The notes: generated by a model not told the origin, from the sequence alone. A stretch of 18,500 nucleotides of DNA from an uncultured Methanosarcinales archaeon (GCA_964427985.1 CAYRWJ010000019.1:1-18500), one strand, 5' to 3'. Shown: positions 1,421 to 14,759, counted from the stretch's first letter. Translations and numbers: made by a program.

Positions 1421-2149
1421 TTAATTCCAAGCAAATAAGAAGAAATCTAAATATTCTTTTGCTAAACTTTTATTTTTTATTAATATTAGAGTTGGAGTTG
1501 TGTCCCAATTCATTATAATTATTTTATCTTGAAAAATTCCAACATCTCCTGGAAAAGAAACTTTGCTAAATCTTGTTTTCCAGTACTTATGATTTATGAC
1601 TTTGTGTTGTTTTTTAAATTTACTTTCATTTTTTTTTGAAATTAATAAGTGTGAGATGATTTTTTTCTCTTTTTTTAATACGCCAGACCAGTCATAAAAT
1701 ATTTTAGCTTTTTTATCAGAACTAGATTTTCCTGTTCCGTAACTATAATGGATTGAATCGGGAGTTGAGTCTGAAAAAAACTCAATGATTGCGCCTCTTA
1801 AGGCTTTCATACCTTCAAACATTTTAACTTCGTTCTTATTATTTGATTTTTTTTGAAGAATTTTTAATTGATTTATATTATTTTCAATATTTCTTTTTTT
1901 TTCATTAAATAAATCTAAAATTTTGTTTGGGTCAGATGCTAAAAAATATTTAGTTTTAATTTTAGTAATCCAACTAACTAAACTTTTGTTTTCTAGTGAT
2001 TCTAGGACTGCGTATATTTTAGAGTTAGGTACTTGTGATTTTTTAGATAGTGGGCCCGTTGTGGTTTGTCCTAATTCTAATAATGCACAATAAACTTTTG
2101 ATTCACGTTCAGTAAGACCTATTTCTGTTAGTAATTCATTAACATTCAT
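1421..2149 (-). CDS. TrmB-like winged-helix transcriptional regulator, paralog 1 (242 aa)
   Basis: The N-terminus LTEIGLTERESKVYCALLELGQTT...IYAVLESLENKSLVS matches the TrmB-type HTH pattern, followed by a ~150-aa C-terminal domain. ATG start; divergent from SBP1. A TATA-like box is centred ~25 nt upstream of the ATG. Confidence 0.8.
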   Translation of the reverse strand: MNVNELLTEIGLTERESKVYCALLELGQTTTGPLSKKSQVPNSKIYAVLESLENKSLVSWITKIKTKYFLASDPNKILDLFNEKKRNIENNINQLKILQKKSNNKNEVKMFEGMKALRGAIIEFFSDSTPDSIHYSYGTGKSSSDKKAKIFYDWSGVLKKEKKIISHLLISKKNESKFKKQHKVINHKYWKTRFSKVSFPGDVGIFQDKIIIMNWDTTPTLILIKNKSLAKEYLDFFLFAWN

Positions 2150-2164
2150 GCTTGTTATAATCTG

Positions 2165-2197
2165 GTTGTATATTTAAATGTTTTTGTTACTTCTCCC
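2165..2197. promoter_or_regulatory. Conserved intergenic block A, copy 1 (TGTATATTTAAAT...TTCTCCC); candidate TATA/promoter of a leaderless trmB-like gene
   Basis: 33-nt block, about 27/33 identical to 4080-4112. It starts exactly 16 nt from the regulator ATG in both cassettes. The TATA-like core is 2167-2179. Confidence 0.5.
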
Positions 2198-2198
2198 T

Positions 2199-2230
2199 TG
2201 GGGGGTAAATGGAGTTTATATGTTGTTTTG
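2199..2230. promoter_or_regulatory. Conserved intergenic block B, copy 1 (GGGGTAA..ATGGAGT.TATA..GTTGT)
   Basis: Alignable by eye with 7993-8034 and 10048-10089. It lies 46-77 nt upstream of the SBP1 start. Confidence 0.45.
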
Positions 2231-2275
2231 CGTTATTTAACGATAAGGGGGATGAAATCGAGTAAACGAGGTAAA

Positions 2276-3328
2276 ATGAAATGGATAATGATTTTAGCAA
2301 TGTTACTTTTGTTAGTTGGTTGTAGTTCAACAAACACATTTAAAGTTGGAGTAATAGCTCCGCTGTCTGGAAATCAGGCATTTATAGGAAATGATTTCAA
2401 AGAGGGATTAGAATTAAATTCTGAAATAGAATATGTTTATCAAGATAGCCAAGGGAGTGTAATTGGTGCAGTATCAGCATATCACCAATTAAGAGTAGAG
2501 GATGTTGATGCAATGGTTGTTGTAAGTTCAGGAGATGAAGCAATACTTGAACTAGCAGATAAAGATGAAATTCCTTTGATTTTAACAGTATCATCCACTG
2601 GAGGTTTACCTTCAAAAAGTTCTTGGGTCTTTAGATATTTTACTAATGCAGATAGTGATGCTCCTGTAATTGTAGAATATGCAACTGAAGACTTGGAGTA
2701 TAATAATTTTGCAATTTTACATGTTGTAGATAATTTCGGATATAGTTATGCAACTGTTTTTCAATCAGAAGTTGAAAAAATGGGCGGAACCATAGTTGGA
2801 GTTGAACAATTTCAATATACTGATTATGAATACCGAACACAACTATTGAAATTAGAAGAAGAAAATCCGGATGCAATTTATGTTATAGGATTAGATTATC
2901 AGATTGCAGAAGCGCTAAAAGAAATAAATGAATTAAATATTGATGTTCAAGTATTATCTTTAGGGACAATAGCAACAGACTATGCAATTGGATTAGCAGA
3001 GGGAACAGCAGAAGGAGTTTACACAACTGCATTTTGCACAGATGGAACCCCTGAAAACTATAAATCTGAGTTTGAAGTAAAATATGGTTATGAACCTGGA
3101 TTCTTCTCAGAATTAGGAAATGACATTGATAACTTTATTGAGTTATCTGAAGCAGATGATAATGTTGAATTTAGAGATAATTTACTCTCTCTGAAAAATG
3201 TTGAATCAAATGCAGGACTTGTTAGTTCGGATTCAAATGGTGAGTTAATAATGCCTGTTTGTGTTAAGAAAATTCAAGATGGAAAAATATTGAATCTTCA
3301 AACAGGAAAATATTATAATGAAGATTAA
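2276..3328 (+). CDS. LivK-like (type I periplasmic-binding fold) substrate-binding lipoprotein, SBP1
   Basis: MKWIMILAMLLLLVGCSS is a signal peptide with a lipobox-like LVGC. FKVGVIAPLSGNQAFIGN and NPDAIYVIG are typical of Leu/Ile/Val-binding-protein-family SBPs. Start moved to ATG 2276 (GAGGT 4 nt upstream); the track's TTG at 2198 lies in the promoter region, and ATG 2252 is an alternative. Confidence 0.8.
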   Translation: MKWIMILAMLLLLVGCSSTNTFKVGVIAPLSGNQAFIGNDFKEGLELNSEIEYVYQDSQGSVIGAVSAYHQLRVEDVDAMVVVSSGDEAILELADKDEIPLILTVSSTGGLPSKSSWVFRYFTNADSDAPVIVEYATEDLEYNNFAILHVVDNFGYSYATVFQSEVEKMGGTIVGVEQFQYTDYEYRTQLLKLEEENPDAIYVIGLDYQIAEALKEINELNIDVQVLSLGTIATDYAIGLAEGTAEGVYTTAFCTDGTPENYKSEFEVKYGYEPGFFSELGNDIDNFIELSEADDNVEFRDNLLSLKNVESNAGLVSSDSNGELIMPVCVKKIQDGKILNLQTGKYYNED

Positions 3329-3335
3329 ATGTCTT

Positions 3336-4064
3336 TTATTTTTTTATTTTCCAAATAGCATCAAACATAAACCTAAATGAGTTGGCTATTTGTTTTGAAT
3401 TAATCATTACTGCGGTGGGGATGTCTTCAAAAGAAGCAATTAATACTGTATCTCCATAAATTCCAATTCCTCTTGGAGCAAAATCATTAACATACTTAAT
3501 TTGCCAATTTTTAACATTCTTAAAACGAGTTTCAAATACATTTTTATCAGAGCGGTTAACAATTAATTTAACTTTATATTTCATTTTAATTCGTTTTAAT
3601 TGATAATTTTCAAAGAAAACTTTTACTGATTTTGGTTCATTCTTATTTGAACCAAGAGCAAAAGCAAGATATTCACTTCCTTTTGGCAATATCTCAAGAA
3701 CAGAATTAAATGCAGTTTGGATTCCTTTCCAACCAATAAACATTTTAGTTTCAGGTTGGTTTTGGGAAAGTGAAATATTTTCTAGTTCAGGAATCAAGTC
3801 TGCAAGTTTAGATTTTTTATCTTCCCAAAGATGCATGATGTTTTTTGGTTCTGTTGCGGAGAAGTATTTAGTCTTAGATTTTATGATAAATGTAACTAAA
3901 CCTTTCTGAATTAAATCATCTAATGCTCTATAAACAACCGAACCTGCAATTTGAGCTATTTTTATTATGTTTCCAGACTTGGTTTGCCCCAACTCTAATA
4001 GTGTTGTGTAAACGATTATTTGGGAATCAGTTAAACCTATTTCTTCTAGTATTTTTAAATCCAT
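3336..4064 (-). CDS. TrmB-like winged-helix transcriptional regulator, paralog 2 (242 aa)
   Basis: LEEIGLTDSQIIVYTTLLELGQTKSGNI...VYRALDDLIQKGLVT. Same length and architecture as paralog 1; divergent from SBP2. Confidence 0.8.
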   Translation of the reverse strand: MDLKILEEIGLTDSQIIVYTTLLELGQTKSGNIIKIAQIAGSVVYRALDDLIQKGLVTFIIKSKTKYFSATEPKNIMHLWEDKKSKLADLIPELENISLSQNQPETKMFIGWKGIQTAFNSVLEILPKGSEYLAFALGSNKNEPKSVKVFFENYQLKRIKMKYKVKLIVNRSDKNVFETRFKNVKNWQIKYVNDFAPRGIGIYGDTVLIASFEDIPTAVMINSKQIANSFRFMFDAIWKIKK

Positions 4065-4079
4065 GGTAACTTTTTATTT

Positions 4080-4112
4080 GATGTATATTTAAATCTTTTT
4101 AATTGTTCTCCC
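4080..4112. promoter_or_regulatory. Conserved intergenic block A, copy 2
   Basis: GATGTATATTTAAATCTTTTTAATTGTTCTCCC starts 16 nt from the regulator ATG (4064), the same spacing as copy 1. Confidence 0.5.
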
Positions 4113-4191
4113 AAAAAGAATAACAAACTATTATATGTGGCTTTGTGTTCTCTAATTAGTAATGAAATCAACAATAAAAAGAGGGAAAAAG

Positions 4192-5241
4192 ATGAAATTT
4201 AAAATTTTATTTATTGTATTGTTAATCAGCTTAACTTTTTTAGTTGGTTGCGAAAAAAATACAAATGAAGAACTTGATGTTGCTTTAATTTTGCCTGTAA
4301 CTGGAAAAGGGGCAGGAGTTTCACAAGATTTTATGTATGGAATAGAACTAGCAAAAAAAGAATTGGGAAGTGATGAAATCAATTTTTATTTAGAAGATAC
4401 TCAAACAAATCCAAAAGAGGCAGTGACTGCATTAACACAATTATTGAGCACAAAAGAGATAGATTTAATCGTAACAATGCAAGCACAAACATCACAACCC
4501 TTATTAACAATTGCAGATCAAAATAATATTCCCATAATATCTACGTTAACATCACTTCGAAAAGAAGAATTTACACGAAAAAGTGAAAACGTTTTTTTAG
4601 ATTATCCGCTTCCAGAATATGAGATGAAACCAACAATTGAATTTATGCAAAACAAAGGGTTTGAAAATATAGCAACTCTAACTGTTCAGGATGAATTTGG
4701 AAACACAATGCTTTCATTATTAGATGAACAAGTTGAATTAGTTATTGAAGAGAAGTATTTGATATCTGAGTTAGATTATAGAACTCAATTAATTAAAATA
4801 AAAGAATTAAACCCTGATGCAATATACGTAATAGGATATCCTGCACATCTTATAAGTTTCTTGAAACAAAGAAAAGAATTAGACATGCAAGAAATTCCCG
4901 TAATCTCAACAATGCACATTCAAAGTGGGTTTGTAAGAGCAAAATCAAAAGGAATAATGGAAAATGTATATGCTGTAACTCCAATTTCTTTAGTTTAAGA
5001 TAACTCAGATTTTAGTGAAAGATTTGTTGAAATAAACGGGGTGGAACCTGATGTTTTAGCAGCGTATGGGTATGATTTAGTAATGATGTTAAATCAAATT
5101 AAAGATAAAGAAGATGTTAAAACTGCCCTGTATGAAGTAAACATTGAAGGAATTAATGGAAACATAAGTTTTAATGAATATGGCGAAATTGATATGCCTT
5201 TGGTGGTTGTAGAAGCAGAAGGAAGAACAATAGTTAATTAA
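4192..5241 (+). pseudogene. LivK-like substrate-binding lipoprotein SBP2, interrupted by a single in-frame TAA (4996-4998)
   Basis: ORFs 4162-4998 and 5041-5241 are in the same frame. Reading through the TAA gives ...AVTPISLV*DNSDFSERFVEINGVEPDVLAAYGYD..., a contiguous full-length SBP (~349 codons, like its paralogs). Signal/lipobox is MKFKILFIVLLISLTFLVGCEKN. The likely start is ATG 4192, preceded by GAGGG. Confidence 0.75.
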
Positions 5242-5243
5242 CG

Positions 5244-5270
5244 TCCACCAAAATAAATATCTTTTATTTT
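5244..5270. repeat. Direct repeat, left copy (27 bp perfect; 33 bp imperfect from 5238): orphan copy of the livF 3' end
   Basis: TCCACCAAAATAAATATCTTTTATTTT is identical to 5990-6016. The reverse complement of 5238-5270 reads ...KIKDIYFGGR*, the same C-terminus as the ATPase ORF. Confidence 0.9.
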
Positions 5271-5296
5271 AAAATCAAAACCTTTATATATTCTTG

Positions 5297-5313
5297 GATA
5301 CTTTTTAAGTATC
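5297..5313. promoter_or_regulatory. Perfect palindrome GATACTT-TTT-AAGTATC downstream of a TATA-like box (5283-5293); candidate operator of the RelE-type TA module
   Basis: A 7-bp inverted repeat with a 3-nt spacer sits between CCTTTATATATTC and the AGGTGA ribosome-binding site/ATG 5338. Confidence 0.45.
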
Positions 5314-5337
5314 AGTTGATGCTTAAAGGTGATAAAT

Positions 5338-5640
5338 ATGCAAAAGTTAAAAATTACAAAAAATGAATTAATCGAGAAAAAAAGGTTTAAAACAAAAAGA
5401 TATCCTAATTTAAATACTGTTTTAATGGTAGAAGACTTTTTGAAAGAACATAGCGTTCCAATGTCTTTGGCAAATCTAAAAAAAAAGCTTCCAAGACAGG
5501 TAATGCACCAAACTCTAAAAATTATTTTACAATACTTATGGAAAAGTGGAAAAATAATTTATGGACCTAAAGGAATACAATGGATATATGTTGAACCCGA
5601 ACATCTTAAACAAATGATGCAAGATTCTTTGGAATTGTAA
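5338..5640 (+). CDS. Putative antitoxin / small DNA-binding protein of the RelE-type module (100 aa)
   Basis: The call is positional. Its stop (5638-5640) is 1 nt from the toxin ATG. AGGTGA lies 6 nt upstream of ATG 5338 (the track's GTG 5329 is rejected). No recognisable family by eye. Confidence 0.45.
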   Translation: MQKLKITKNELIEKKRFKTKRYPNLNTVLMVEDFLKEHSVPMSLANLKKKLPRQVMHQTLKIILQYLWKSGKIIYGPKGIQWIYVEPEHLKQMMQDSLEL

Positions 5641-5641
5641 A

Positions 5642-5983
5642 ATGTTCATGGAAAAAGAGGTTAGAATTTTATTAAAAGGACAAGCTAAAGATTCTTATAT
5701 TAAGTTAAAGAAAAGAGAAGATAAAGAATCTAAAAGTATATTAAAATCTGTTGAAAGAGTTACAAATATTCTTAAAGAAAATCCTCAATTTGGGGATCCA
5801 ATTAAAAAGATGTTAATTCCTGATGAATTAAAAAAAGTAGGAATACAAAATATCTATAGAGTTGAATTATCTAATTATTGGAGGATGTTATATACTTTAG
5901 AAGGAAATGAAATAAGTATATTTCTTTTTGTTTTAAAAATATTTAATCATAAAGAATATAACAAATTTTTGGGATATAAATAA
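5642..5983 (+). CDS. RelE/ParE-superfamily toxin (113 aa)
   Basis: The C-terminal pattern NIYRVELSNYWRMLYTLEGNEISIFLFVLKIFNHKEY matches the RelE/ParE core (YR..L..YR.iY.i....i.il.i..R..aY). An ENPQFGDPI segment lies upstream. Tightly coupled to the preceding small ORF. Confidence 0.7.
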   Translation: MFMEKEVRILLKGQAKDSYIKLKKREDKESKSILKSVERVTNILKENPQFGDPIKKMLIPDELKKVGIQNIYRVELSNYWRMLYTLEGNEISIFLFVLKIFNHKEYNKFLGYK

Positions 5984-6898
5984 TTATCTTCCACCAAAAT
6001 AAATATCTTTTATTTTTTTATTTTTTAAAATATCTTTCTTGCCTTTTAATGCAATCTTACCATCTTCTAAAATATAAGTTGTGTCTGCAATCTCAACAGC
6101 TTGTTTAGCATTCTGTTCAACAATTATGACCGATATTCCTTCTTGATTTATTTTTTTAATTATTTTAAAAACTTCTTTCATAGCTTTAGGAGAAAGACCT
6201 AAAGAAGGTTCATCTAAAAGTAAAAGTTGGGGGTTTTGAATTAATGCTCTTGCTATTGCAAGCATTTGTTGTTGTCCGCCTGATAAAGTAAAATTCATAT
6301 CATGTTCTATTAATAAAATAGTATCACCTTGTTTTTTTAGTTGTTTGATAATTTTAGCAATAGTGTTTCGTAATTGTGGATTAACACCTGCAACAGGTTC
6401 ATCAAGCATTAATAATTTATGTGGGTTTAAGATTGACCTCGCAATTTCAGTTAAACGTTTTTGACCAAAACTAAGTTCTGATGTTTTTTTATCTTTGTGT
6501 GCATACATTTGAACTAGTTTTAAAATAGGATCAATATTTTTAAGATCTTTATTTAAACCTAAAAAGTTTTTCCAAAATTTAGTATCTTCTTGATTTGTTG
6601 CTAATTTTAAGTTTTCTTCAATAGTCAAGTTGCTAAACAAACGTGATTGTTGAAATAATCTAGAAATGCCCTTATTAGAAATTTGTTCAATTGGTAAACT
6701 AGTTATGTCTTGTTTATTAAAAACGATTTTTCCAGAATCTGGAGTAATAATTCCCGAAACAAGATTAAATAAAGTAGATTTACCAGAACCATTAGGACCA
6801 ATTAACGCAGTAATAGAATTTGGTTTGATTTCAAAACTACACCCATCAACAGCTTTAACGCCCCCAAAGTATTTTTTAAGGTTAGATATTTGTAACAT
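5984..6898 (-). CDS. livG/F: ABC ATPase: in-frame chimera of LivG (aa 1-~203) and the C-terminal ~100 aa of LivF; possibly non-functional
   Basis: The order is Walker A GPNGSGKST, Q-loop RLFQQ, signature LSFGQKR, Walker B LLMLDEP and H-loop LLIEHDM. A second signature LSGGQQQMLAIARAL then follows directly, with a second Walker B LLLLDEPSLGL, a LivF-type VEQN and the tail IYFGG. There is only one Walker A. Junction ~6287-6292. Confidence 0.85.
   Translation of the reverse strand: MLQISNLKKYFGGVKAVDGCSFEIKPNSITALIGPNGSGKSTLFNLVSGIITPDSGKIVFNKQDITSLPIEQISNKGISRLFQQSRLFSNLTIEENLKLATNQEDTKFWKNFLGLNKDLKNIDPILKLVQMYAHKDKKTSELSFGQKRLTEIARSILNPHKLLMLDEPVAGVNPQLRNTIAKIIKQLKKQGDTILLIEHDMNFTLSGGQQQMLAIARALIQNPQLLLLDEPSLGLSPKAMKEVFKIIKKINQEGISVIIVEQNAKQAVEIADTTYILEDGKIALKGKKDILKNKKIKDIYFGGR
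5990..6016. repeat. Direct repeat, right copy (inside the 3' end of the ATPase ORF)
   Basis: Identical 27-mer to 5244-5270. The extended 33-bp version (5984-6016) differs only in the Arg codon (TCT vs ACG on the + strand). Confidence 0.9.
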
Positions 6899-6929
6899 AT
6901 AGTATTAGTAATAAAGTGGTTAATAAATT

Positions 6930-7979
6930 TTATGATGTCACCCAGTTTTTACCATTAAATGTAAAGATGGTTGAGTTTCTGTTAACAATGCCGTTTTTAT
7001 TGAATTTTAAAGTTCCATCTAATCCTTCAAATTCAGAACTAAGCAAAGTATCTCTTATATATAAGTTATTACCTTTACAGTCTTTTATAATTGGAACTAT
7101 TAAATCAATAGACTCATAAAAATTATAAGACCAATCGTTTCCGATTGAATTAAATCTTGTTTTGAGTAAAAAATCAACAGCTTTTACTTTGGGGTTTTTT
7201 TCAATATAAAAATCTGAACCTATTCCTGAACTAAATACTTTCCCAAGTTCATTAATCGGATTGCATCCTCCTGTAATGTGGGGACAGATAAGTTGAAAAT
7301 CTTTCATGTTAAATGCCTCCATTTGTTTAATTAAAAGGGGCAAGTTTGTTGTAGAAATCCGCAAAAGAATAAAATCAGGATTTTGAGCTTTAATTTTCAT
7401 TAAATGAGTTTTGAAATCTTTATTTTCTCTATCAAAAAGTTCAATATTCAAATTAAAACCTGTGTCTTCAAATGCTTTAATACAGATAAGGGTGGATTCA
7501 GCATTCTGTCCTAATACGCTTCCTTTTTTCCCTTTCACCATTTTAGCTAATTCTTTACAATCTTTTTCAATGTCAATATAATTTTTAAAAACAAAAGAGT
7601 TTTCCTTTGCGGGAGAACTTAAAACTGAAGTATAAAATAAGGGTACTTTGTTAAGTTCTGCAATATCTGCTACAGATGCACTGACACTTGACATGGCAGT
7701 CATTATTAAATCCACCTGGTCAATATTTATTAATTTTAAAGCAGCACTTACAGATTTGCCTGTATCACCTTCATTATCTTCAATAATGAATTCAATATCG
7801 GGATAATCTTCTTTTTTTAATTCTAAAGATTCAAGTGCTTTTTCTCCATAATACGCAAAATGTCCTGAAACTGGGATTATAACTCCTATTTTGTATGTTT
7901 CATCTTTTACTGTATTGCCCGTTGTACATGCTGTAAGAACTAGTAAGAGTAACATTGTTATTATCATCCATATTTTCAT
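6930..7979 (-). CDS. LivK-like substrate-binding lipoprotein, SBP3
   Basis: MKIWMIITMLLLLVLTACTTG is a signal with a lipobox-like LTAC. YKIGVIIPVSGHFAYYG and NPDFILL are also present. AAAGGT lies upstream of the ATG. It sits directly upstream of the ATPase ORF on the same strand. Confidence 0.8.
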   Translation of the reverse strand: MKIWMIITMLLLLVLTACTTGNTVKDETYKIGVIIPVSGHFAYYGEKALESLELKKEDYPDIEFIIEDNEGDTGKSVSAALKLINIDQVDLIMTAMSSVSASVADIAELNKVPLFYTSVLSSPAKENSFVFKNYIDIEKDCKELAKMVKGKKGSVLGQNAESTLICIKAFEDTGFNLNIELFDRENKDFKTHLMKIKAQNPDFILLRISTTNLPLLIKQMEAFNMKDFQLICPHITGGCNPINELGKVFSSGIGSDFYIEKNPKVKAVDFLLKTRFNSIGNDWSYNFYESIDLIVPIIKDCKGNNLYIRDTLLSSEFEGLDGTLKFNKNGIVNRNSTIFTFNGKNWVTS

Positions 7980-7992
7980 TTTTACCTTTAAA

Positions 7993-8034
7993 GTGAGGTA
8001 ACTAAATGAGGTATATAAAGACTTGTTGTAATGA
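7993..8034. promoter_or_regulatory. Conserved intergenic block B, copy 2
   Basis: GTGAGGTAACTAAATGAGGTATATAAAGACTTGTTGTAATGA is ~31/42 identical to 10048-10089, although the flanking proteins are only about one-third identical. Confidence 0.5.
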
Positions 8035-8074
8035 TGATGGCAACACTTATATACTTCTTGGTTTTTGGTTAATC

Positions 8075-8800
8075 ATGATTATAGATATGTTAAAAGAAAT
8101 TGGGTTAAGTATAACTGAGGCAAAAGTATATTTAGCTTTACTTGAATTAGGTTCAGCTCTTGCGGGAGAGATAACAAAAAAGTCAGAAGTAAATAGAACA
8201 AATGTTTATGATGCGTTAGAACGCTTAATTGAAAAAGGGTTGGTTACCTACGTAATTAGTGCTAATAGGAAGGTGTTTGAGGCAGTACATCCTTCAAGAT
8301 TAAAAGAAATTTTGAAGGAAAAAGAAAACAATCTTAAAAAAGAAATGGGTTTGTTAGAATCTTTATATTCGGATAATAAAGAAAAAGAGGAAGCGATAAT
8401 ATACAAAGGAAAAAAAGGACTAAAATCAGTATTTGAAGATATACTTAATGAAAGCAAAACAATTTATGGTTATGGTGCAGAAGGCAAGTTTGTACAAATG
8501 TTTGGTCCTTATGCTGAAAACTGGCAAAAAAGAAGGATTAATAAAAAAATAAAAATGAACATAATCTGGACTGAAAAAGTGAGATCTAGAAAAATACAAA
8601 ATGTCAATAAACTGGAGCTGGTAAATAAACGCTTTATACCAAACACCTATGATTTTCCCTCAACTATTGCAATTTATGGCAATAAAACAGTAACAATAGT
8701 TTGGAGTGAACAACCTTTTGCATTTATGATTAAAAGTCAAGAAGTTGTTAAAAGTAATATTAACTTCTTTAAGATGTTATGGAAGATAGCTAAGGATTGA
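8075..8800 (+). CDS. TrmB-like winged-helix transcriptional regulator, paralog 3
   Basis: MIIDMLKEIGLSITEAKVYLALLELGSA...VYDALERLIEKGLVT. Start moved from 8006 to ATG 8075, by alignment with the N-termini of paralogs 1, 2 and 4 and because a TATA-like CTTATATAC is centred ~25 nt upstream (ATG 8087 also possible). Confidence 0.75.
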   Translation: MIIDMLKEIGLSITEAKVYLALLELGSALAGEITKKSEVNRTNVYDALERLIEKGLVTYVISANRKVFEAVHPSRLKEILKEKENNLKKEMGLLESLYSDNKEKEEAIIYKGKKGLKSVFEDILNESKTIYGYGAEGKFVQMFGPYAENWQKRRINKKIKMNIIWTEKVRSRKIQNVNKLELVNKRFIPNTYDFPSTIAIYGNKTVTIVWSEQPFAFMIKSQEVVKSNINFFKMLWKIAKD

Positions 8801-8882
8801 GTAATAATTATAAAACTAATTTTGAGGTATTATGGAAAAGTTCTAAAAAATATGACTTAACCAACCTATCTCTTAGTTAAAT

Positions 8883-10010
8883 TTAAATTTTACTAAACAC
8901 TTTTTCTCCATTTTTAATGCTAACTTCTTTGTAAACATCATTGCTAAGTACTGGGTCTCCATTTTCATCAAAATCCCATTTTGCTACTTTACCATCCCAG
9001 TTATTGTTAACTAAATAACTTTTAATGCAGGTAGTGTTTTCTTCACAAGTTAGTATGGCATCTTTAATGATGTATGCTGCATCATACATTGCAGCAGTAT
9101 GGAAAAAGTGAAATCCTGGTTTTTCTCCATAGGTTGTAATGTATTTTTGCAATAATTCTTCATTTTCAGCAAAAGGAAATACTGAAAAAGCATCGTTAGG
9201 AAGCGCTTTATCTGATTTCTCATAAACTGCAGTATCAATTACAGTTGGAGGTCCCATTATCTTTACTTTATTTAACAAACCAGATTCTTTCATCTGTTTT
9301 AAAATTCTTGCAGAGTCTTGAGCTGCTAATCCTGCTACAAAAACACCATCTACATTTTTAGAATCAATTTTGGTAATTATTGTTCTAAAATCAGTTGTTC
9401 CTGTTGGAAAGCTTTCAGTTAAAACAATTGAACCGCCTTTTTCCTTAAAGCTAGTTGCAAATTCATCAGCCCAACTTTTTGTGAATTCAGTTTGTTCAAC
9501 AATCATTGCAATACGATTTAATTCATATTTTTCTTTTGCTATTTCCCCAATAATTTTTGCTGCTTCTGTTGCTGCGGGAGATATTCTGAAAGCATATTCA
9601 AAATTATCGAAAAAACCAGTAGCAGTAGTTGTTGCTGCTAATATAATTATTTTATTTTCATTAGTTATAGGAGCAACAGGTCCGGATGCAGGAGTGCAAC
9701 TTGGTCCAAGAATAATTTTTATATCTTGAGCTAAAAGTTTGTTGGCTGCAGTAACAGCAGCATTTCCTGAACACATATCGTCTTCTAAGATAAATTCAAT
9801 TTGTTTTCCATTAACTCCACCTTCATTGTTAATTTCATCAATAGCAATCTTTGCAAAATTGGCTTCTGTAGTTCCTCCAACTGCCCAACCGCCAGTTAGA
9901 GCAAATAGGCCTCCAATTTTAATAGTATCGTTTTCTTCTACTTTATTTGAACATCCAACTAAAGTTATTAAAATCAATAGTAATATTGTTATAATTTTTA
10001 TTTTATTCAT
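8883..10010 (-). CDS. LivK-like substrate-binding lipoprotein, SBP4
   Basis: MNKIKIITILLLILITLVGCSNK carries the lipobox. IKIGGLFALTGGWAVGG, AIDEINNEGGVNGKQIEFILED and ILGP are classic Leu/Ile/Val-binding-family motifs. AGAGGTAAAAAC lies upstream of the ATG. Confidence 0.85.
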   Translation of the reverse strand: MNKIKIITILLLILITLVGCSNKVEENDTIKIGGLFALTGGWAVGGTTEANFAKIAIDEINNEGGVNGKQIEFILEDDMCSGNAAVTAANKLLAQDIKIILGPSCTPASGPVAPITNENKIIILAATTTATGFFDNFEYAFRISPAATEAAKIIGEIAKEKYELNRIAMIVEQTEFTKSWADEFATSFKEKGGSIVLTESFPTGTTDFRTIITKIDSKNVDGVFVAGLAAQDSARILKQMKESGLLNKVKIMGPPTVIDTAVYEKSDKALPNDAFSVFPFAENEELLQKYITTYGEKPGFHFFHTAAMYDAAYIIKDAILTCEENTTCIKSYLVNNNWDGKVAKWDFDENGDPVLSNDVYKEVSIKNGEKVFSKI

Positions 10011-10047
10011 AGTTTTTACCTCTTTTTTTATTGTTTTTACCTCTATT

Positions 10048-10089
10048 GTGGGGTAACCAAATGGAGTATATAATACGTTGTTGTCATAA
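10048..10089. promoter_or_regulatory. Conserved intergenic block B, copy 3
   Basis: GTGGGGTAACCAAATGGAGTATATAATACGTTGTTGTCATAA. It shares GTTGT(C/T)ATAATCTG with 2152-2165 of cassette 1. Confidence 0.5.
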
Positions 10090-10140
10090 TCTGACTACAA
10101 ACAGAAAAGTTTAATAATCAGTTAAAGTTTAAAGTTTAAC

Positions 10141-10869
10141 ATGGACGTTTATTCAGCATTAATGGAATTTGGATTGGAAAACAGAGAAACTAAAGTTTAT
10201 ACTGCTTTATTAGAATTAGGTCCAACAACAGCGTCACAACTAGCAAAAAAAGTGAGTATTCTAAGGCCTACAATGTATGAAGTTCTTAATAGAATGATGC
10301 AAAAAGGGGTAATAAGTAGTTCTATAAGTGGGGGGAAAAAAATATTTGAAGCAATAAAACCTAAAATTTTATTGCAAATTCTTGATGATAAGAAAAAAAT
10401 TCTTCAAGATTTTATTCCCGAATTGGAAGAATTAGTTAAAGTGGGACATACCGAACAAAAGGTAAGCACTTTTTTTGGAGAAAAAGGATTAAAAACAATA
10501 TATGATGATATGTTAGTTGAAGGAAAGACAATTTATCATATTTTAAATTATGTAGAACATTCAAAAGTATTTAAATTATATTGGACACAAAATTTTATTA
10601 AAAAAAGATTAGAAAAAGGAATACAATTTAAAGCAATAGTAAGTAAAATAATTGATAAAGAACTTGAAAAAACAGATAAAGCACGATTAAGAGAAATAAG
10701 AAAACTAAAAAAAGTAGAAGAGTTTAAAGCATCATTATTCATTTATGGAAATAAATGTGGTTTTTTTACAACAAAAGATAGTTTAATTGGTGTTTTAATT
10801 GAAAGCCCAACAATAACTGCGTCTCTAAAAATAATGTTTAACATATTGTGGAAGATAGCTAAGGATTAA
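10141..10869 (+). CDS. TrmB-like winged-helix transcriptional regulator, paralog 4 (242 aa)
   Basis: LMEFGLENRETKVYTALLELGPTTASQLA...MYEVLNRMMQKGVIS. The C-terminus ILWKIAKD is shared with paralog 3. Confidence 0.8.
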   Translation: MDVYSALMEFGLENRETKVYTALLELGPTTASQLAKKVSILRPTMYEVLNRMMQKGVISSSISGGKKIFEAIKPKILLQILDDKKKILQDFIPELEELVKVGHTEQKVSTFFGEKGLKTIYDDMLVEGKTIYHILNYVEHSKVFKLYWTQNFIKKRLEKGIQFKAIVSKIIDKELEKTDKARLREIRKLKKVEEFKASLFIYGNKCGFFTTKDSLIGVLIESPTITASLKIMFNILWKIAKD

Positions 10870-10900: not shown

Positions 10901-11779
10901 TCAGGAAGAATCTAATTCTACTCTTCCAAAGAAACCTTTAGGTCTATAAACTAAAATTAGTAAAAGTAATAACGCATAAATTATCTGCCTCATTGGGCCA
11001 ACAATACTAGAAGGAAAACCAATAAATCTTAAAGGTTCAGGAAGAAGTATTAAAATAATAGTTGCTATGGTTGTGCCTTTTAAAGATGCCAATCCTCCAA
11101 TGATTACAATAGCAATAACTGGAATAATTTGCATTAATGTAAAAGAAGAAGGATCAATAAATGTAATATAATGAGCATATAAACTTCCCGCAATTCCTGC
11201 AAAGAAAGCACTAATTCCCATAACATACATTTTCATCTTAAAAGTATTCTTACCAAGAGTTTTACTTGCTAATTCATCATCTCTAATAGATTCTAAAACT
11301 TTGCCAAAAGGAGATTTAATTATTTGTCTGATAACAAAATAAGTTATAATGCATATTATTATTGTTAAAATGAGAAAAGAAAAATTGTTTGTTATAGCTA
11401 AACCAAAAAAGTTAGGTTTAGGGATGCCTGGAATACCCAACGGCCCCCTAGTTAAAGAAACCCAATTTAATAATACTGCGTAGATAACAAAGAAGAATCC
11501 CAAAGTAGCTAAAGCAAGATAATCTCCTTTAAGTTTATTCAAAGGAAGAGATAATAAAAAACCAAATAACATTGCGACAATTCCTGCTGAAATAAAAGCA
11601 ATACTGAATGGAACTCCATTCATAACCATTAAAGCAGAAGTATAAGCACCAATACCATAAAAAGCAACATGGCCTATGTTAAGTAAACCACTATAACCAA
11701 TAGTAAGCTGTAAAGATAATGCTAAAATGAGATAAATACCTACCAAGATAGCTAAATGAATAAAATATGCTTCAATCAT
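10901..11779 (-). CDS. livM: Branched-chain amino acid ABC transporter permease, LivM type
   Basis: A polytopic membrane protein with the LivM-like SGLLNIGHVAFYGIGAYTSA motif. GAGG lies 6 nt upstream of the ATG. Confidence 0.85.
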   Translation of the reverse strand: MIEAYFIHLAILVGIYLILALSLQLTIGYSGLLNIGHVAFYGIGAYTSALMVMNGVPFSIAFISAGIVAMLFGFLLSLPLNKLKGDYLALATLGFFFVIYAVLLNWVSLTRGPLGIPGIPKPNFFGLAITNNFSFLILTIIICIITYFVIRQIIKSPFGKVLESIRDDELASKTLGKNTFKMKMYVMGISAFFAGIAGSLYAHYITFIDPSSFTLMQIIPVIAIVIIGGLASLKGTTIATIILILLPEPLRFIGFPSSIVGPMRQIIYALLLLLILVYRPKGFFGRVELDSS

Positions 11780-12197
11780 GTTTTTCCTCTAAATTTTTTT
11801 TAACTTGATAGATTGCATCTTTTAAATCAGTTATTAAATCTTTTGCTTCGATAGCATTAACTCTTTTTTTATAATAATTAATTCCATTTCTGATTTTTCT
11901 TAAATAATTAAATTTTATAGATAATTCATTTAAATTTAAAAATTCAGATATAAAAGAACAATAACATTCATGATTTTTTATTTTAAATCCATTTCTCATT
12001 GCTAAAGCTTCAAGAAACATTCTTAATATGTCATAGAAATCACAAACAATAGTTTCTGCGCTAAGGTTATTAATTTCTAAAGAATCAATAAATTTAAATT
12101 TTTCATCCGCTTTCTCTTTTAAAACCTTAATTAATAGTTTATCAACAAAAACGTCATCTTTCACAAATTTTTCTTTTTTACATTCAATCCAATCCAT
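11772..12197 (-). CDS. HEPN-like domain protein, putative toxin partner of the adjacent nucleotidyltransferase (141 aa)
   Basis: An all-helical-looking 141-aa protein immediately downstream of a minimal NTase (TAATG overlap). It has an ...KNHE... segment and a C-terminal LRKIRNGINYY segment. Its stop overlaps the livM start. The family call rests mostly on the conserved MNT-HEPN gene pairing. Confidence 0.55.
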   Translation of the reverse strand: MDWIECKKEKFVKDDVFVDKLLIKVLKEKADEKFKFIDSLEINNLSAETIVCDFYDILRMFLEALAMRNGFKIKNHECYCSFISEFLNLNELSIKFNYLRKIRNGINYYKKRVNAIEAKDLITDLKDAIYQVKKNLEEKHD

Positions 12198-12679
12198 TAT
12201 ATTATTAACCCTTTTTTTATATTTTTAATTAACTCTTCACTTTTGGCTGCATTTTTGAAAAATAATTGAATTTCTCGTTTCAATAGTTTTTCAGCTTTGG
12301 ATAAATCAATTTTTTTCTCAGGTAAATCAATAAATAAGTCTACATCTGAATTGATAGTATTTTCAACTTTAAATAATGAACCAAATAATGTTATTGGTTT
12401 AAACATTAACTCTTCTCTTAAAGGTTCTAAAACTTTTGTTAATCTTTTTCTCCAAAAAGCTTTAGTTAAATCTTTGAAAAAATCTGAAGTTTTGTTTGCC
12501 CTGAACATTAAATAAATTCTATCCTGTTTTTTTATTAATAATTCTTCTTTAGCAAATTGATTTAATAGTTTAGATGCAGTTGGCGGACTAATATCTTGCA
12601 TTCTTGCATATTCTCTTACAGAAATTTCTCTATAAACATCTTCGAAAAAAGGTTTTAAATTATTAAATATACTTAACAT
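12197..12679 (-). CDS. Winged-helix + minimal nucleotidyltransferase (MNT) fusion, putative antitoxin (160 aa)
   Basis: The N-terminal HTH-like segment is ISVREYARMQDISPPTASKLLNQFAKEELLIKK. The NTase motif is LFGSLFKVENTINSDVDLFIDL (GS...DxD). Confidence 0.75.
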   Translation of the reverse strand: MLSIFNNLKPFFEDVYREISVREYARMQDISPPTASKLLNQFAKEELLIKKQDRIYLMFRANKTSDFFKDLTKAFWRKRLTKVLEPLREELMFKPITLFGSLFKVENTINSDVDLFIDLPEKKIDLSKAEKLLKREIQLFFKNAAKSEELIKNIKKGLII

Positions 12680-12746: not shown

Positions 12747-13832
12747 TTATTCAATTGGAATAATTTCACCATCTTTAATAACGTGGATTGCATAGCTTTT
12801 TCCAATAGTGTCTCCATTCTCATCAAAGTTAGTAGTTCCCGTAGCACCTTTCCAATCTTTCACATTATATAACCATGCTTTAGCCTCTTCAATATTCCCA
12901 TTATTCTTAATTAAAGCTTCTAAAGTTAATAAGGTACAATCATAAATTCCTGAAGCAAAATACCCTGGTTCACTATCATATTTTATTTTATGTGTTGCAA
13001 CAAATTCTTTTAATTCTTCAGAATCTGGATCAACATAATAAGGAAAAAGAACGTCCTCTCCTAATTCCAAATCTTCTGTTTTTAAAATACTCATAAAGTT
13101 CTCAGAACCAATTAAGGGTAAGTTAATATCCAGTTCTTTAATCTCTTTAAGAATTGTAGGATAATGGTGCGAAATAACTACTAAAACATCTGGATTTTTA
13201 TTTTTTATTTTAATAAGTTGTGTTTTAAAATTTAAAGAAGTAACATCAAAACTTTCAGTAATAACAACTTCTCCCCCATTTTTTTCAACTTGGTTGATTA
13301 TAACTTCTTTAAGTCCGGTTCCATAATCATTAAGAATGTTTAATATTGCCACTTTTTCATATCCTTTTTCTGCAATAAGATCCGCAATATCATTACCCTG
13401 ATATAAATCGGAAGGATAAATTCTAAAAACATAATCTCCTGCATTGGTTATATCTGGACTACTTCCTCCTGTGATTAAAAGAACTTTATTTTCTTCAGCA
13501 ATTGGGGCCATAGCAAGAGTTTCGCTAGAACTTCCCGGAATAATCGCTTTAACTTGATCAATGTTAATTAGTTTTTGAGCAGCAGCAACGGATTTAGTAG
13601 AATCAAGTTGAGAATCTTCAATAATAAGTTTAACATCAACATTGTATTCCTTTTCAATTTTTTCAATACCTAATTGTAATGCTTTTTCAAAACCTTGTCC
13701 ATAATCTGCAGCAGGTCCTGTTAAGGGAATGACTGCACCAATTTTTATTGTTTCTTTTTCTTCTACTTCTTTAGAACAACCAATTAAAGTTATTAATGTA
13801 AGTAATAATAATATTGTAATTATTTTTTTCAT
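12747..13832 (-). CDS. LivK-like substrate-binding lipoprotein, SBP5 (no paired regulator)
   Basis: MKKIITILLLLTLITLIGCSKE carries the lipobox. IKIGAVIPLTGPAADYGQG, KLIIEDSQLD and NPDVLVV are also present. AGAGGTAAC lies upstream of the ATG. It sits between livH and the MNT/HEPN pair. Confidence 0.85.
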   Translation of the reverse strand: MKKIITILLLLTLITLIGCSKEVEEKETIKIGAVIPLTGPAADYGQGFEKALQLGIEKIEKEYNVDVKLIIEDSQLDSTKSVAAAQKLINIDQVKAIIPGSSSETLAMAPIAEENKVLLITGGSSPDITNAGDYVFRIYPSDLYQGNDIADLIAEKGYEKVAILNILNDYGTGLKEVIINQVEKNGGEVVITESFDVTSLNFKTQLIKIKNKNPDVLVVISHHYPTILKEIKELDINLPLIGSENFMSILKTEDLELGEDVLFPYYVDPDSEELKEFVATHKIKYDSEPGYFASGIYDCTLLTLEALIKNNGNIEEAKAWLYNVKDWKGATGTTNFDENGDTIGKSYAIHVIKDGEIIPIE

Positions 13833-13886: not shown

Positions 13887-14759
13887 TTAATCTTTCTTTT
13901 TTATACCCAAAATGCCTGTTGGTTTAAATATTAAAAATATGAATAATATTACAAAAGCAATAGCATCCTTATATCCTGAAGGAAGATACCAAATACCATA
14001 ATTTTCTGCAAAGCCAAGTAAGAATGAACCAAGAACTGCGCCTGGAACAGAACCAATACCCCCAATAATCGCACCAGTAAACCCCTTAATAATAAGATTA
14101 GTTCCCATTGTAGGTTCTAAATTTTGTTCTAACCCAATAAGTATCCCTGCAATACCTGCAATGGTAGAACCTAAAACCATCGCCCACATATAAATACGTT
14201 CAGAAGAAATGCCAACAATTGAAGCAACATCTTTATTATCACTAACTGCTCTCATTGCTTTACCTAACTTAGTCTTTTTCATAAAAAAATATAAAGAAAT
14301 AAGCAAAATCGCAGCTACAATTATAATTACAACTTGTAAAGGAGTTATGATAGCACCCATAAATTCCATACCCTTAGCAACTTTTAAATAACCAATAGTT
14401 TTAACATCAGCACCAAAAAATATCAAAATAAGAGATTCAAGTAATATAAGAAGAGCAAAACTAGCAATTAATAAAATGACCGTAGATGCCTTTTTTATTC
14501 TTAACTGTTTGTAAATGTGATGCATACCATAACCTAATAGTGATGCGCAAATCAAAGCTAAAATAATAGAAAAACCAAAATTAATATTTAATATGGTAAA
14601 AAATAAGTAAAGAAAATATGCACTAAACGCAACAGTAACACCATGAGCAAAATGAATAATTTTAGATGTTGAATAAATTAAAGAAAATCCTGTGGCTACT
14701 AAAGCATAAATTGCTCCTGCAATTAAACTATTAACAAATAATTGTGCAACAATTGACAT
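13887..14759 (-). CDS. livH: Branched-chain amino acid ABC transporter permease, LivH type
   Basis: A polytopic membrane protein with the LivH-like N-terminus LIAGAIYALVATGFSLIYSTSKIIHFAHG. Confidence 0.85.
   Translation of the reverse strand: MSIVAQLFVNSLIAGAIYALVATGFSLIYSTSKIIHFAHGVTVAFSAYFLYLFFTILNINFGFSIILALICASLLGYGMHHIYKQLRIKKASTVILLIASFALLILLESLILIFFGADVKTIGYLKVAKGMEFMGAIITPLQVVIIIVAAILLISLYFFMKKTKLGKAMRAVSDNKDVASIVGISSERIYMWAMVLGSTIAGIAGILIGLEQNLEPTMGTNLIIKGFTGAIIGGIGSVPGAVLGSFLLGFAENYGIWYLPSGYKDAIAFVILFIFLIFKPTGILGIKKKD

Follow-up and report, generated by a model that had tools for sequence, protein, structure and literature searches.

At the trehalose/maltose operon of Thermococcus litoralis and Pyrococcus furiosus, the regulator TrmB is encoded together with an ATP-binding cassette (ABC) transporter that depends on a substrate-binding protein (SBP). 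It carries a winged helix-turn-helix (wHTH) of family PF01978 with a conserved recognition tyrosine, Tyr50, which is essential to DNA recognition, and its site of action is a short palindrome in the promoter of the SBP gene (PMC4158304). Six of the seven sugar contacts of this 338-amino-acid (aa) protein lie in a second C-terminal subdomain, and TrmBL2 (PF0496/TK0471) and TrmBL3 (264 aa) of the Thermococcales lack the C-terminal ~70 residues that form it (PMC4158304). Here we describe a locus in which four TrmBL2-like regulators (R1-R4) each stand divergent from the gene of an SBP (S1-S4) of the HAAT, or amino-acid, type, beside a single LivH/LivM permease pair. It occupies most of an 18,500-nucleotide contig deposited for an uncultured Methanosarcinales archaeon (GCA_964427985.1, CAYRWJ010000019.1:1-18500), the whole of which is referred to as the window. 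The contig is archaeal with a low GC content of about 29%, and close relatives carry the label Candidatus Woesearchaeota, the group in which we place this small-genome archaeon.

The regulator/SBP units, or cassettes, share with TrmB the PF01978 wHTH, the recognition tyrosine and the company of an SBP-dependent transporter, and binding of R1-R4 to palindromes at the SBP promoters is predicted. Unlike TrmB, R1-R4 are only about 242 aa long and have no second C-terminal subdomain, the transporter is of the HAAT rather than the sugar type, and the regulator is divergent, one per SBP and iterated 4-5 times, instead of being one gene inside the operon. In three-part architecture, similar length and lack of a sugar-binding subdomain they resemble TrmBL2 and TrmBL3 (PMC4158304), although only about 20% identical to TrmBL2. 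The latter also occurs as one abundant protein of chromatin, with non-specific binding to DNA inside and between genes, whereas here there are many paralogues per locus, with conserved palindromes of their own. In Escherichia coli LIV-I, LivHMGF is shared by several HAAT SBPs (LivJ, LivK), whose genes are transcribed from promoters of their own. The present locus resembles it in the logic of several SBPs on one LivH/LivM translocator, but with 5-7 SBPs against two, with one dedicated regulator per SBP in place of the single global regulator Lrp, and, in the window, with one chimera in place of the ATPase pair. Divergent pairs of a local regulator and its target, for example of the LysR type, share an intergenic inverted repeat that serves autoregulation as well as control of the divergent gene; the proteins here belong to a different family, and the promoters are archaeal, with a transcription factor B recognition element (BRE) and a TATA box.

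Full-text searches of the literature for TrmB in connection with DPANN archaea, Woesearchaeota, Patescibacteria, branched-chain amino acids or SBPs returned no description of TrmB-like/HAAT-SBP cassettes or of this variable locus; one paper notes no more than that livKHMGF is encoded in some Woesearchaeota metagenome-assembled genomes (PMC11606122). The short TrmB architecture and the theme of TrmB beside an ABC transporter are known; what is new is the TrmBL2-like/HAAT-SBP cassette layout, and no new principle is involved. It should be of use to those who study regulation in archaea or the biology of DPANN archaea and bacteria of the candidate phyla radiation (CPR). To our knowledge, almost nothing is known of gene regulation and uptake choice in ultra-small symbiotic archaea and CPR bacteria.

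A preliminary description of this DNA had proposed four divergent cassettes, the first two inverted relative to the last two, a single LivH/LivM pair, a fifth SBP (S5) without a regulator inside the liv operon, and paralogues about one third identical. The annotation bears this out: all genes lie where they had been placed and in the orientations given (Table 1), each of R1-R4 is separated from its divergent Peripla_BP_6 gene by 95-130 bp, the window holds one pair of BPD_transp_2 permeases by Pfam, S5 lies between livH and livM, and pairwise identities are 27-34% among the regulators and 24-35% among the SBPs. All five SBPs match Peripla_BP_6 (E 6e-25 to 7e-46), as anticipated, and all have a signal peptide ending in an L-x-[GA]-C lipobox. 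The relatives of S4 and S1 in the PDB are branched-chain amino-acid binders (4gnr, LivJ 1z15, 3td9), and S4 matches both LivJ and LivK structures, with 4gnr and 1z15 among its matches. Matches of S4 and S1 extend to HAAT members with other ligands, and the family includes aromatic-acid binders; these relatives single out no substrate.

The expectation that the ~242-aa proteins would match TrmB was confirmed by all four, which reach 40.9-65.5 bits with PF01978 over the first ~70 residues (gathering score 25.6; E 2e-10 to 4e-18). The motif given for the helix-turn-helix is less general than supposed, as R2 reads QIIVY in place of E.KVY. No Pfam domain, TrmB_C included, was found in the C-terminal ~150 aa of R1-R4. 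A profile of R1-R4 aligned over positions 5-240 to residues 7-258 of Pyrococcus TrmBL2 (5box; hmmsearch, E 7e-8), and along its full length to the TrmBL2 structures 5bpd and 5bqt, whereas its alignment with TrmB (3qph) was limited to the N-terminal residues 3-111. The AlphaFold2 model of R4 (predicted local distance difference test score, pLDDT, 91) begins with a winged helix, followed by a helix of 29 residues (74-102) and a single alpha/beta domain. Foldseek placed it closest to TrmBL2 (5bpd, 5bqt; E 2e-14) and then TrmB (E 3.5e-10), and the C-terminal domain alone retrieved the phospholipase D (PLD)-fold proteins NucT and Zucchini. Tyr46, the counterpart of TrmB Tyr50, is invariant in both family alignments (A1 and A2). 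R1-R4 end at residue ~242 and so are without the effector subdomain that carries Asn305...Glu326 in TrmB. They are members of the TrmB family with the TrmBL2 architecture (wHTH, coiled coil, PLD-like domain), stand outside the sugar-sensing TrmB/TrmBL1/MalR group, whose defining effector subdomain they lack, and have no recognisable TrmB-type ligand pocket. The short architecture that had seemed unfamiliar is thus that of TrmBL2 and TrmBL3, by profile, by Foldseek and by published comparison (PMC4158304); structure prediction of the C-terminal domain returned a TrmBL2/PLD-like fold and not the TrmB sugar-binding subdomain. The domain is maintained all the same: its identity is 43-76% within orthologue groups but 20-31% between paralogues, as would suit a role particular to each paralogue, be it in effector binding or in self-association, though it proves neither. 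Across the 68 family members of alignment A2 a near-invariant G-x-x-G-x-K (R4 G113, G116, K118) opens the PLD-like domain, with Y202, F233 and W237 (R4 numbering) also conserved; G-x-x-G-x-K plus Tyr202 could mark a binding or interface site, and it differs from the HKD motif.

The pairing of such a regulator with an SBP gene recurs in other genomes. In a scan of species-representative genomes, DPANN archaea and CPR/Patescibacteria yielded 408 proteins related to the regulators, and neighbourhoods were counted in the best 80 regulator-centred loci, screened with hidden Markov models from the window's own proteins. An SBP is the immediate divergent neighbour of the regulator in seven of the 80 (L015, L017, L022, L030, L047, L049 and L064, three of them with a bacterial label), where the density of SBP genes in these loci predicts at most 0.94 by chance (P~5e-5); co-occurrence beyond chance, which had been put forward as a check on the pairing, was therefore found. 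Ten of the 15 SBP open reading frames (ORFs) in the 80 loci are divergent neighbours of a regulator, and the 18 divergent pairs in the window and nine loci are mostly 95-130 bp apart.

Regulator and SBP are also inherited together. Orthologues of R1/S1 are 80/60% identical in L085 and 58/71% in L088 (SBP_g), and adjoin each other in both; those of R2/S2 in L088 are 76% (TrmB_d) and 63% (SBP_f), and those of R4/S4, paired in each case, 65/53% in L085 and 55/62% in L087. S5 is 70% identical to SBP_b of L088, and for S3 no orthologue was found in L017, L085, L087 or L088 (best 30%). Fifteen comparisons between cassettes reached 45% identity or more in one partner or the other, and in 11 of them both partners are orthologous; the divergence of regulators follows that of SBPs (Mantel r=0.73, p=0.0005). 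Being both enriched across loci and inherited together, the regulator/SBP pairing is not accidental.

Four relatives with a liv locus (L017, L085, L087 and L088) have 1-5 cassettes each and many SBPs, but a single LivH/LivM/LivG/LivF set. L085 has three cassettes and L087 one of the TrmB type. In L087 (15574-20191), from a more distant woesearchaeote, the divergent partner of each of two HAAT SBP genes encodes a protein of 317-320 aa in which an HTH_AsnC-type domain occurs twice, so that the layout of one regulator per SBP has also been made with a different regulator family. The closest relative, L088/L089, with LivH and LivM 90% identical to those of the window, occupies the same place on the chromosome, with the thermosome gene on one side and DUF2284/prefoldin/L37Ae on the other, and encodes five cassettes, a total of seven SBPs, and LivG and LivF in intact form. 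Its overlap with the window is limited to cassettes 1 and 2 and S5: L088 lacks orthologues of R3/S3 and R4/S4, and the window lacks those of three cassettes of L088. The preliminary description of the array as old and maintained has to give way to one of fast turnover, and the comparison indicates rapid gain, loss and exchange of cassettes at this one chromosomal site. That cassettes come, go and decay so quickly while the permeases stay 90% identical suggests that in these organisms the specificity of uptake is an accessory trait which depends on the niche. The R1 orthologue of L088 (18744-19457) has an in-frame stop of its own (...GDWGI-stop-GDKILL...), which together with the decay seen in the window implies that cassettes decay independently in different lineages.

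When oriented alike, the archaeal intergenic regions (IG1-IG4 in the window) follow a shared plan, namely an SBP leader containing a Shine-Dalgarno (SD) sequence, an SBP-side TATA-like element, an inverted repeat and the TATA box of the regulator. The regulator-side box, of TTTAAATA type, lies 28-30 nt before the regulator ATG, which implies a leaderless regulator mRNA. In eight of the 15 archaeal intergenic regions the centre of the best repeat falls 47-54 nt before this ATG, against a mean of 1.4 and a maximum of six in 300 shuffles. The distance from repeat to TATA is 1-6 nt on the SBP side and about 8-10 nt on the regulator side, which places the repeats over or against both BRE positions. 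Among orthologous intergenic regions the TATA-repeat-TATA core is the best-conserved stretch: the IG1 core is conserved with L085 and L088_e, the IG4 palindrome in L085 and L087, and the IG2 core is nearly identical in L085_6273 and L088_d, even though R2 and the L085 protein are only 63% identical. The pattern TTGTNGT-N3-14-ACNACAA has a single match in the window, the IG4 palindrome, where 0.03 were expected.

The R3 group offers a comparison across unrelated neighbours. R3 has 912 homologues, the best 55-67% identical, and is widespread in Woesearchaeota/Nanoarchaeota. Its orthologues in L001, L003, L008, L012, L013 and L032, whose neighbours are unrelated, have TTGTTGT-N9-11-CAACA beside a TATA box. 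The R3 pattern occurs in ten of 87 loci and lies directly upstream of the regulator in seven of these ten. Other regulator types have other repeats, the L047, L049, L088_a group having TC(T/C)CCA-N4-6-(T)GG(A/T)GGA in common and the R1 group TTTACCCC-N-GGGAG-AGTA. The palindromes go with the type of regulator, even where the neighbouring gene differs. The R3-type palindrome (L001 9946-9968, L003 9947-9969, L008 4225-4247, L012 7981-8003, L013 5-27) is a candidate conserved autoregulatory operator of a core Woesearchaeota transcription factor.

Taken together, we consider it fairly probable that each cassette is a local regulator/operator/SBP module that feeds the shared LivH/LivM translocator, the regulator controlling itself and its SBP. 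A factor of TrmBL2 architecture would bind its own palindrome as a dimer, centred about 50 nt upstream of its start codon, and the bound dimer would control both its own leaderless gene and the divergent SBP gene; since the repeats lie over or against both BRE positions, it should affect both promoters. The different SBPs would then deliver different substrates to the single translocator. By analogy, repression is slightly favoured over activation, because the site would reach the BRE of the SBP promoter as it does for TrmB at malE. The alternative is activation from upstream of BRE/TATA, for which TrmBL1/Tgr is a precedent.

The locus had been proposed to be a bank of ligand-specific sensor-regulator/SBP modules on one translocator. 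Of this, the recurrent, co-inherited module with its palindromes and the single translocator of the relatives stand, and ligand sensing by the C-terminal domain finds no support, the sugar subdomain being absent; a role of the regulators as ligand-specific sensors is conceivable but doubtful. A bolder view would make the locus a fast-turnover 'specificity island' at one fixed site in Woesearchaeota, related DPANN and some CPR, with regulator, operator and SBP as plug-in modules on one HAAT translocator and the PLD-like domain as a paralogue-specific sensor of its partner's substrate; as a whole we regard this as unlikely, if conceivable. The locus offers a compact natural series, in which each of 4-5 paralogous factors can be told apart by its palindrome and has an SBP as partner; the series could serve to read the DNA-recognition code of the TrmB family and to test small-molecule sensing by a TrmBL2-type C-terminal domain.

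The regulator family is used more widely than with HAAT SBPs. In 57 of the 73 loci without an SBP partner there is still a divergent ORF within 350 bp, and a Pfam scan was made of twenty of the larger of these. The partners included radical SAM proteins (four), an NMT1-type SBP beside an ABC ATPase (two), PQQ beta-propellers (two), and an acyl-CoA dehydrogenase, an HMG-CoA synthase and a tRNA-synthetase-like protein (one each); nine of the 20 had no significant Pfam family, one of these nine having a sub-threshold coiled-coil match. The NMT1-type and radical SAM partners are found in L010 (5375-6352) and L051 (1789-2814), and in L004, L007, L027 and L073, some of them labelled as CPR bacteria. 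At least two regulator paralogues occur in 16 of the 80 loci. Given these varied partners and paralogues, the family is one of local regulators of general use in archaea and bacteria with small genomes, and the HAAT-SBP pairing is a recurrent instance of that use.

Two genes of the window are damaged or rearranged. An in-frame TAA at 4996-4998 splits S2 into 278 and 80 codons, the frame running on to 5241; the earlier reading of S2 as an intact gene had run through this stop. The orthologue SBP_f in L088 is intact, with a sense codon at that position, and the other genes of the window end in ordinary stops; on these grounds a reassigned stop codon was set aside as an explanation. S2 is probably a pseudogene or makes a truncated product. 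The ATPase ORF does lie between the cassettes, as described, and is the only one there, but it is no normal LivG or LivF: it is a deletion chimera of the two. Compared by blastp with L017, L085 and L088, its residues 1-205 match LivG (62-81% identical) and residues 198-304 match residues 128-234 of LivF (80-89%), and blastn shows livG nt 1-621 joined in frame to livF nt 404-705 near 6284/6285. The LivG part keeps its Walker A, signature, Walker B and H-loop, giving a protein with one Walker A and two signature/Walker B/H-loop sets, without the Walker A of LivF and the PF12399 domain of LivG. None of 7386 relatives in the protein collection shares this architecture, the nearest being LivG proteins of 243-245 aa with PF12399. 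In L088 the two breakpoints are separated by 4.66 kb with two further regulator/SBP cassettes. Separate LivG and LivF, as usual for a HAAT importer, are not present in the window, while L017, L085, L087 and L088 have both. An independent Joint Genome Institute (JGI) contig, L084, is 100% identical over window positions 3042-7311 (4.27 kb), chimera and S2 stop included, and both are for this reason real features of the population.

Several observations weigh against the reading of the cassettes as local modules for SBP control. Taken one by one, the inverted repeats, IG1 included, are no better than those of dinucleotide shuffles (p 0.01-0.8), which is why we place weight on their position, on phylogenetic footprints and on conservation linked to regulator type; clean palindromes in the window are limited to IG4 and IG3, those of IG1 and IG2 being imperfect, and the geometry varies, two cassettes of L088 having the palindrome downstream of the TATA box. 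In a mirror-tree test with orthologous cassettes excluded, regulators and SBPs showed no correlation (p=0.13), so that ancient duplication of the whole unit is not demonstrated. The R2 orthologue of L085 adjoins a non-orthologous SBP, an R4 relative in L086 (56% identical) has no SBP neighbour, and R3 orthologues are not beside SBPs in L001-L003, L008 and L012; since they normally stand away from SBPs, the R3-S3 link may be incidental. No ligand site is identifiable in the regulators, and their closest solved relative, TrmBL2, is a non-specific chromatin protein. It could be that the regulators are autoregulators, or chromatin or global factors like TrmBL2, and that SBPs merely fill the divergent slot with no SBP-specific control, in which case the finding would shrink to an annotation note. 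The 57 loci with other divergent neighbours and an R3-type operator that tracks the regulator and not its neighbour speak for this, but the enrichment of SBPs as partners and the joint inheritance in 11 of the 15 comparisons do not fit it. A palindrome 1-6 nt from the SBP-side TATA could hardly be bound while sparing that promoter, and 4-5 paralogues with different palindromes at one locus are unlike a non-specific binder; we therefore give this explanation a low probability.

Doubt of another kind is raised by the chimeric ATPase and the truncated S2, which put uptake in this organism in question: an intact shared translocator, as first assumed, is not what the window encodes, livG and livF being lost as intact genes, and the system may be impaired. 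The locus could be a decaying remnant, its importer dead since the livG/livF fusion and the S2 nonsense codon, with the remaining cassettes being lost. The missing Walker A and PF12399 of a chimera without parallel, a stop in S2 where L088 is intact, the toxin-antitoxin-like insertions and the pseudogenised regulator of L088 all point that way. On the other hand, R1-R4, S1, S3, S4, S5, LivH and LivM are intact ORFs, and the permeases still share 90% identity with their L088 counterparts. The first nucleotide-binding domain of the chimera is complete, a homodimer of it might function, and the genome may encode further ATPases beyond the 18.5-kb contig; we hold decay to be somewhat unlikely. Another view is that the SBPs diversify and turn over under selection on exposed surface lipoproteins, for host attachment or virus avoidance in an episymbiont, the regulators providing for alternative expression of variants. 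Cassettes that differ between genomes with 90% identical permeases and lipoprotein paralogues only 24-35% identical would agree with it; yet full Peripla_BP_6 domains are kept, the closest solved relatives bind amino acids, SBPs in the relatives are always accompanied by their cognate HAAT translocator, and no repeats or switching elements surround the SBPs, which makes it very improbable. That paralogous cassettes were collapsed or mis-joined in assembly might be suspected of an 18.5-kb metagenome contig with an odd chimeric ATPase. At only about 30% identity they cannot be collapsed, however, and an artefact was rejected on the strength of contig L084 and of the synteny with L085 and L088, which extends from the thermosome gene to L37ae; we give it almost no credence.

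Table 1. Genes and control elements of the liv locus (positions in the window; IG, intergenic region; E, E-value)
Feature	Position	Strand	Evidence or remark
R1, TrmBL2-like regulator, 242 aa, cassette 1	1421-2149	-	PF01978 E 5e-16
IG1	2150-2275		promoter/repeat coordinates read from sequence
IG1 regulator-side TATA	2164-2178		TTTAAATA
IG1 imperfect inverted repeat	2187-2209		TTTACCCCCCAAGGGAGAAGTAA
IG1 S1-side TATA	2214-2222		S1 leader with GAGGT ribosome-binding site
S1, HAAT-type substrate-binding lipoprotein, 350 aa counted from MKWIMIL...	2276-3328	+	Peripla_BP_6 E 1e-31
R2, TrmBL2-like regulator, 242 aa, cassette 2	3336-4064	-	PF01978 E 2e-10
IG2	4065-4191		promoter/repeat coordinates read from sequence
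IG2 R2-side TATA	4080-4093
IG2 inverted repeat	4103-4126		TTGTTaTTCT-N7-AGAACAA
IG2 S2-side TATA	4128-4137
S2, SBP gene broken by in-frame TAA (4996-4998)	4192-5241	+	Peripla_BP_6 match on 278-aa N-terminal part
Two small ORFs, 103 and 113 aa, toxin-antitoxin-like pair	5329-5983	+	weak ParE_like match
Chimeric LivG::LivF ABC ATPase, 304 aa	5984-6898	-	two ABC_tran stretches
S3, SBP lipoprotein, 349 aa, most divergent SBP	6930-7979	-	Peripla_BP_6 E 6e-25
IG3	7980-8074		promoter/repeat coordinates read from sequence
IG3 S3-side TATA	8011-8020
IG3 palindrome	8023-8045		TTGTTGT-N11-CAACA
IG3 R3-side TATA	8046-8054
R3, TrmBL2-like regulator, 241 aa	8075-8800	+	PF01978 E 4e-18
S4, SBP lipoprotein, 375 aa, nearest of the SBPs to LivJ/LivK type	8883-10010	-	Peripla_BP_6 E 7e-46
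IG4	10011-10140		promoter/repeat coordinates read from sequence
IG4 S4-side TATA	10066-10076
IG4 palindrome	10078-10100		TTGTTGTCA-N5-TGACTACAA
IG4 R4-side TATA-like element	10109-10119		TTTAATAA
R4, TrmBL2-like regulator, 242 aa, cassette 4	10141-10869	+	PF01978 E 8e-17
LivM-type permease	10901-11779	-	BPD_transp_2 E 1e-50; 91% identical to L088
MNT-type nucleotidyltransferase, 160 aa, and 141-aa partner	11772-12679	-	NTP_transf_2 E 1e-5
S5, SBP without own regulator, between livH and livM	12747-13832	-	Peripla_BP_6 E 4e-45
LivH-type permease	13887-14759	-	BPD_transp_2 E 3e-37; 90% identical to L088

The leaders of S3 and S4 (7980-8022 and 10011-10065) have the block GTG[A/G]GGTAAC[T/C]AAATG[A/G][G/A]GTATATAA in common, and TTACCT-N8-AGGTAA overlaps the ribosome-binding site of S3. 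The predicted RNA folds of these two leaders are not significant (z -1.95 and +0.56), and SD-sequestering hairpins or riboswitch-like leaders upstream of S1-S4 were rejected as candidates, the folds being no better than those of shuffles (best z = -1.95). The window has no Rfam match and no tRNAs.

Two toxin-antitoxin-like pairs interrupt the locus. The pair at 5329-5983, whose ParE_like match (E 0.001) is under the Pfam cut-off, adjoins the ATPase chimera and is missing from the syntenic L088 locus; it may be linked to the rearrangement that made the chimera. The pair at 11772-12679, between S5 and livM, is likewise absent from L088, which has an SBP gene in its place, and the 141-aa partner of its nucleotidyltransferase has no significant Pfam family. 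The ORF of R3 is open back to 8006, and the homologues of R3 begin at 8075. The liv locus is flanked by a thermosome gene (24-1418) at the start of the window and by the genes of DUF2284, an MscS-like channel, prefoldin beta and L37Ae at its end.

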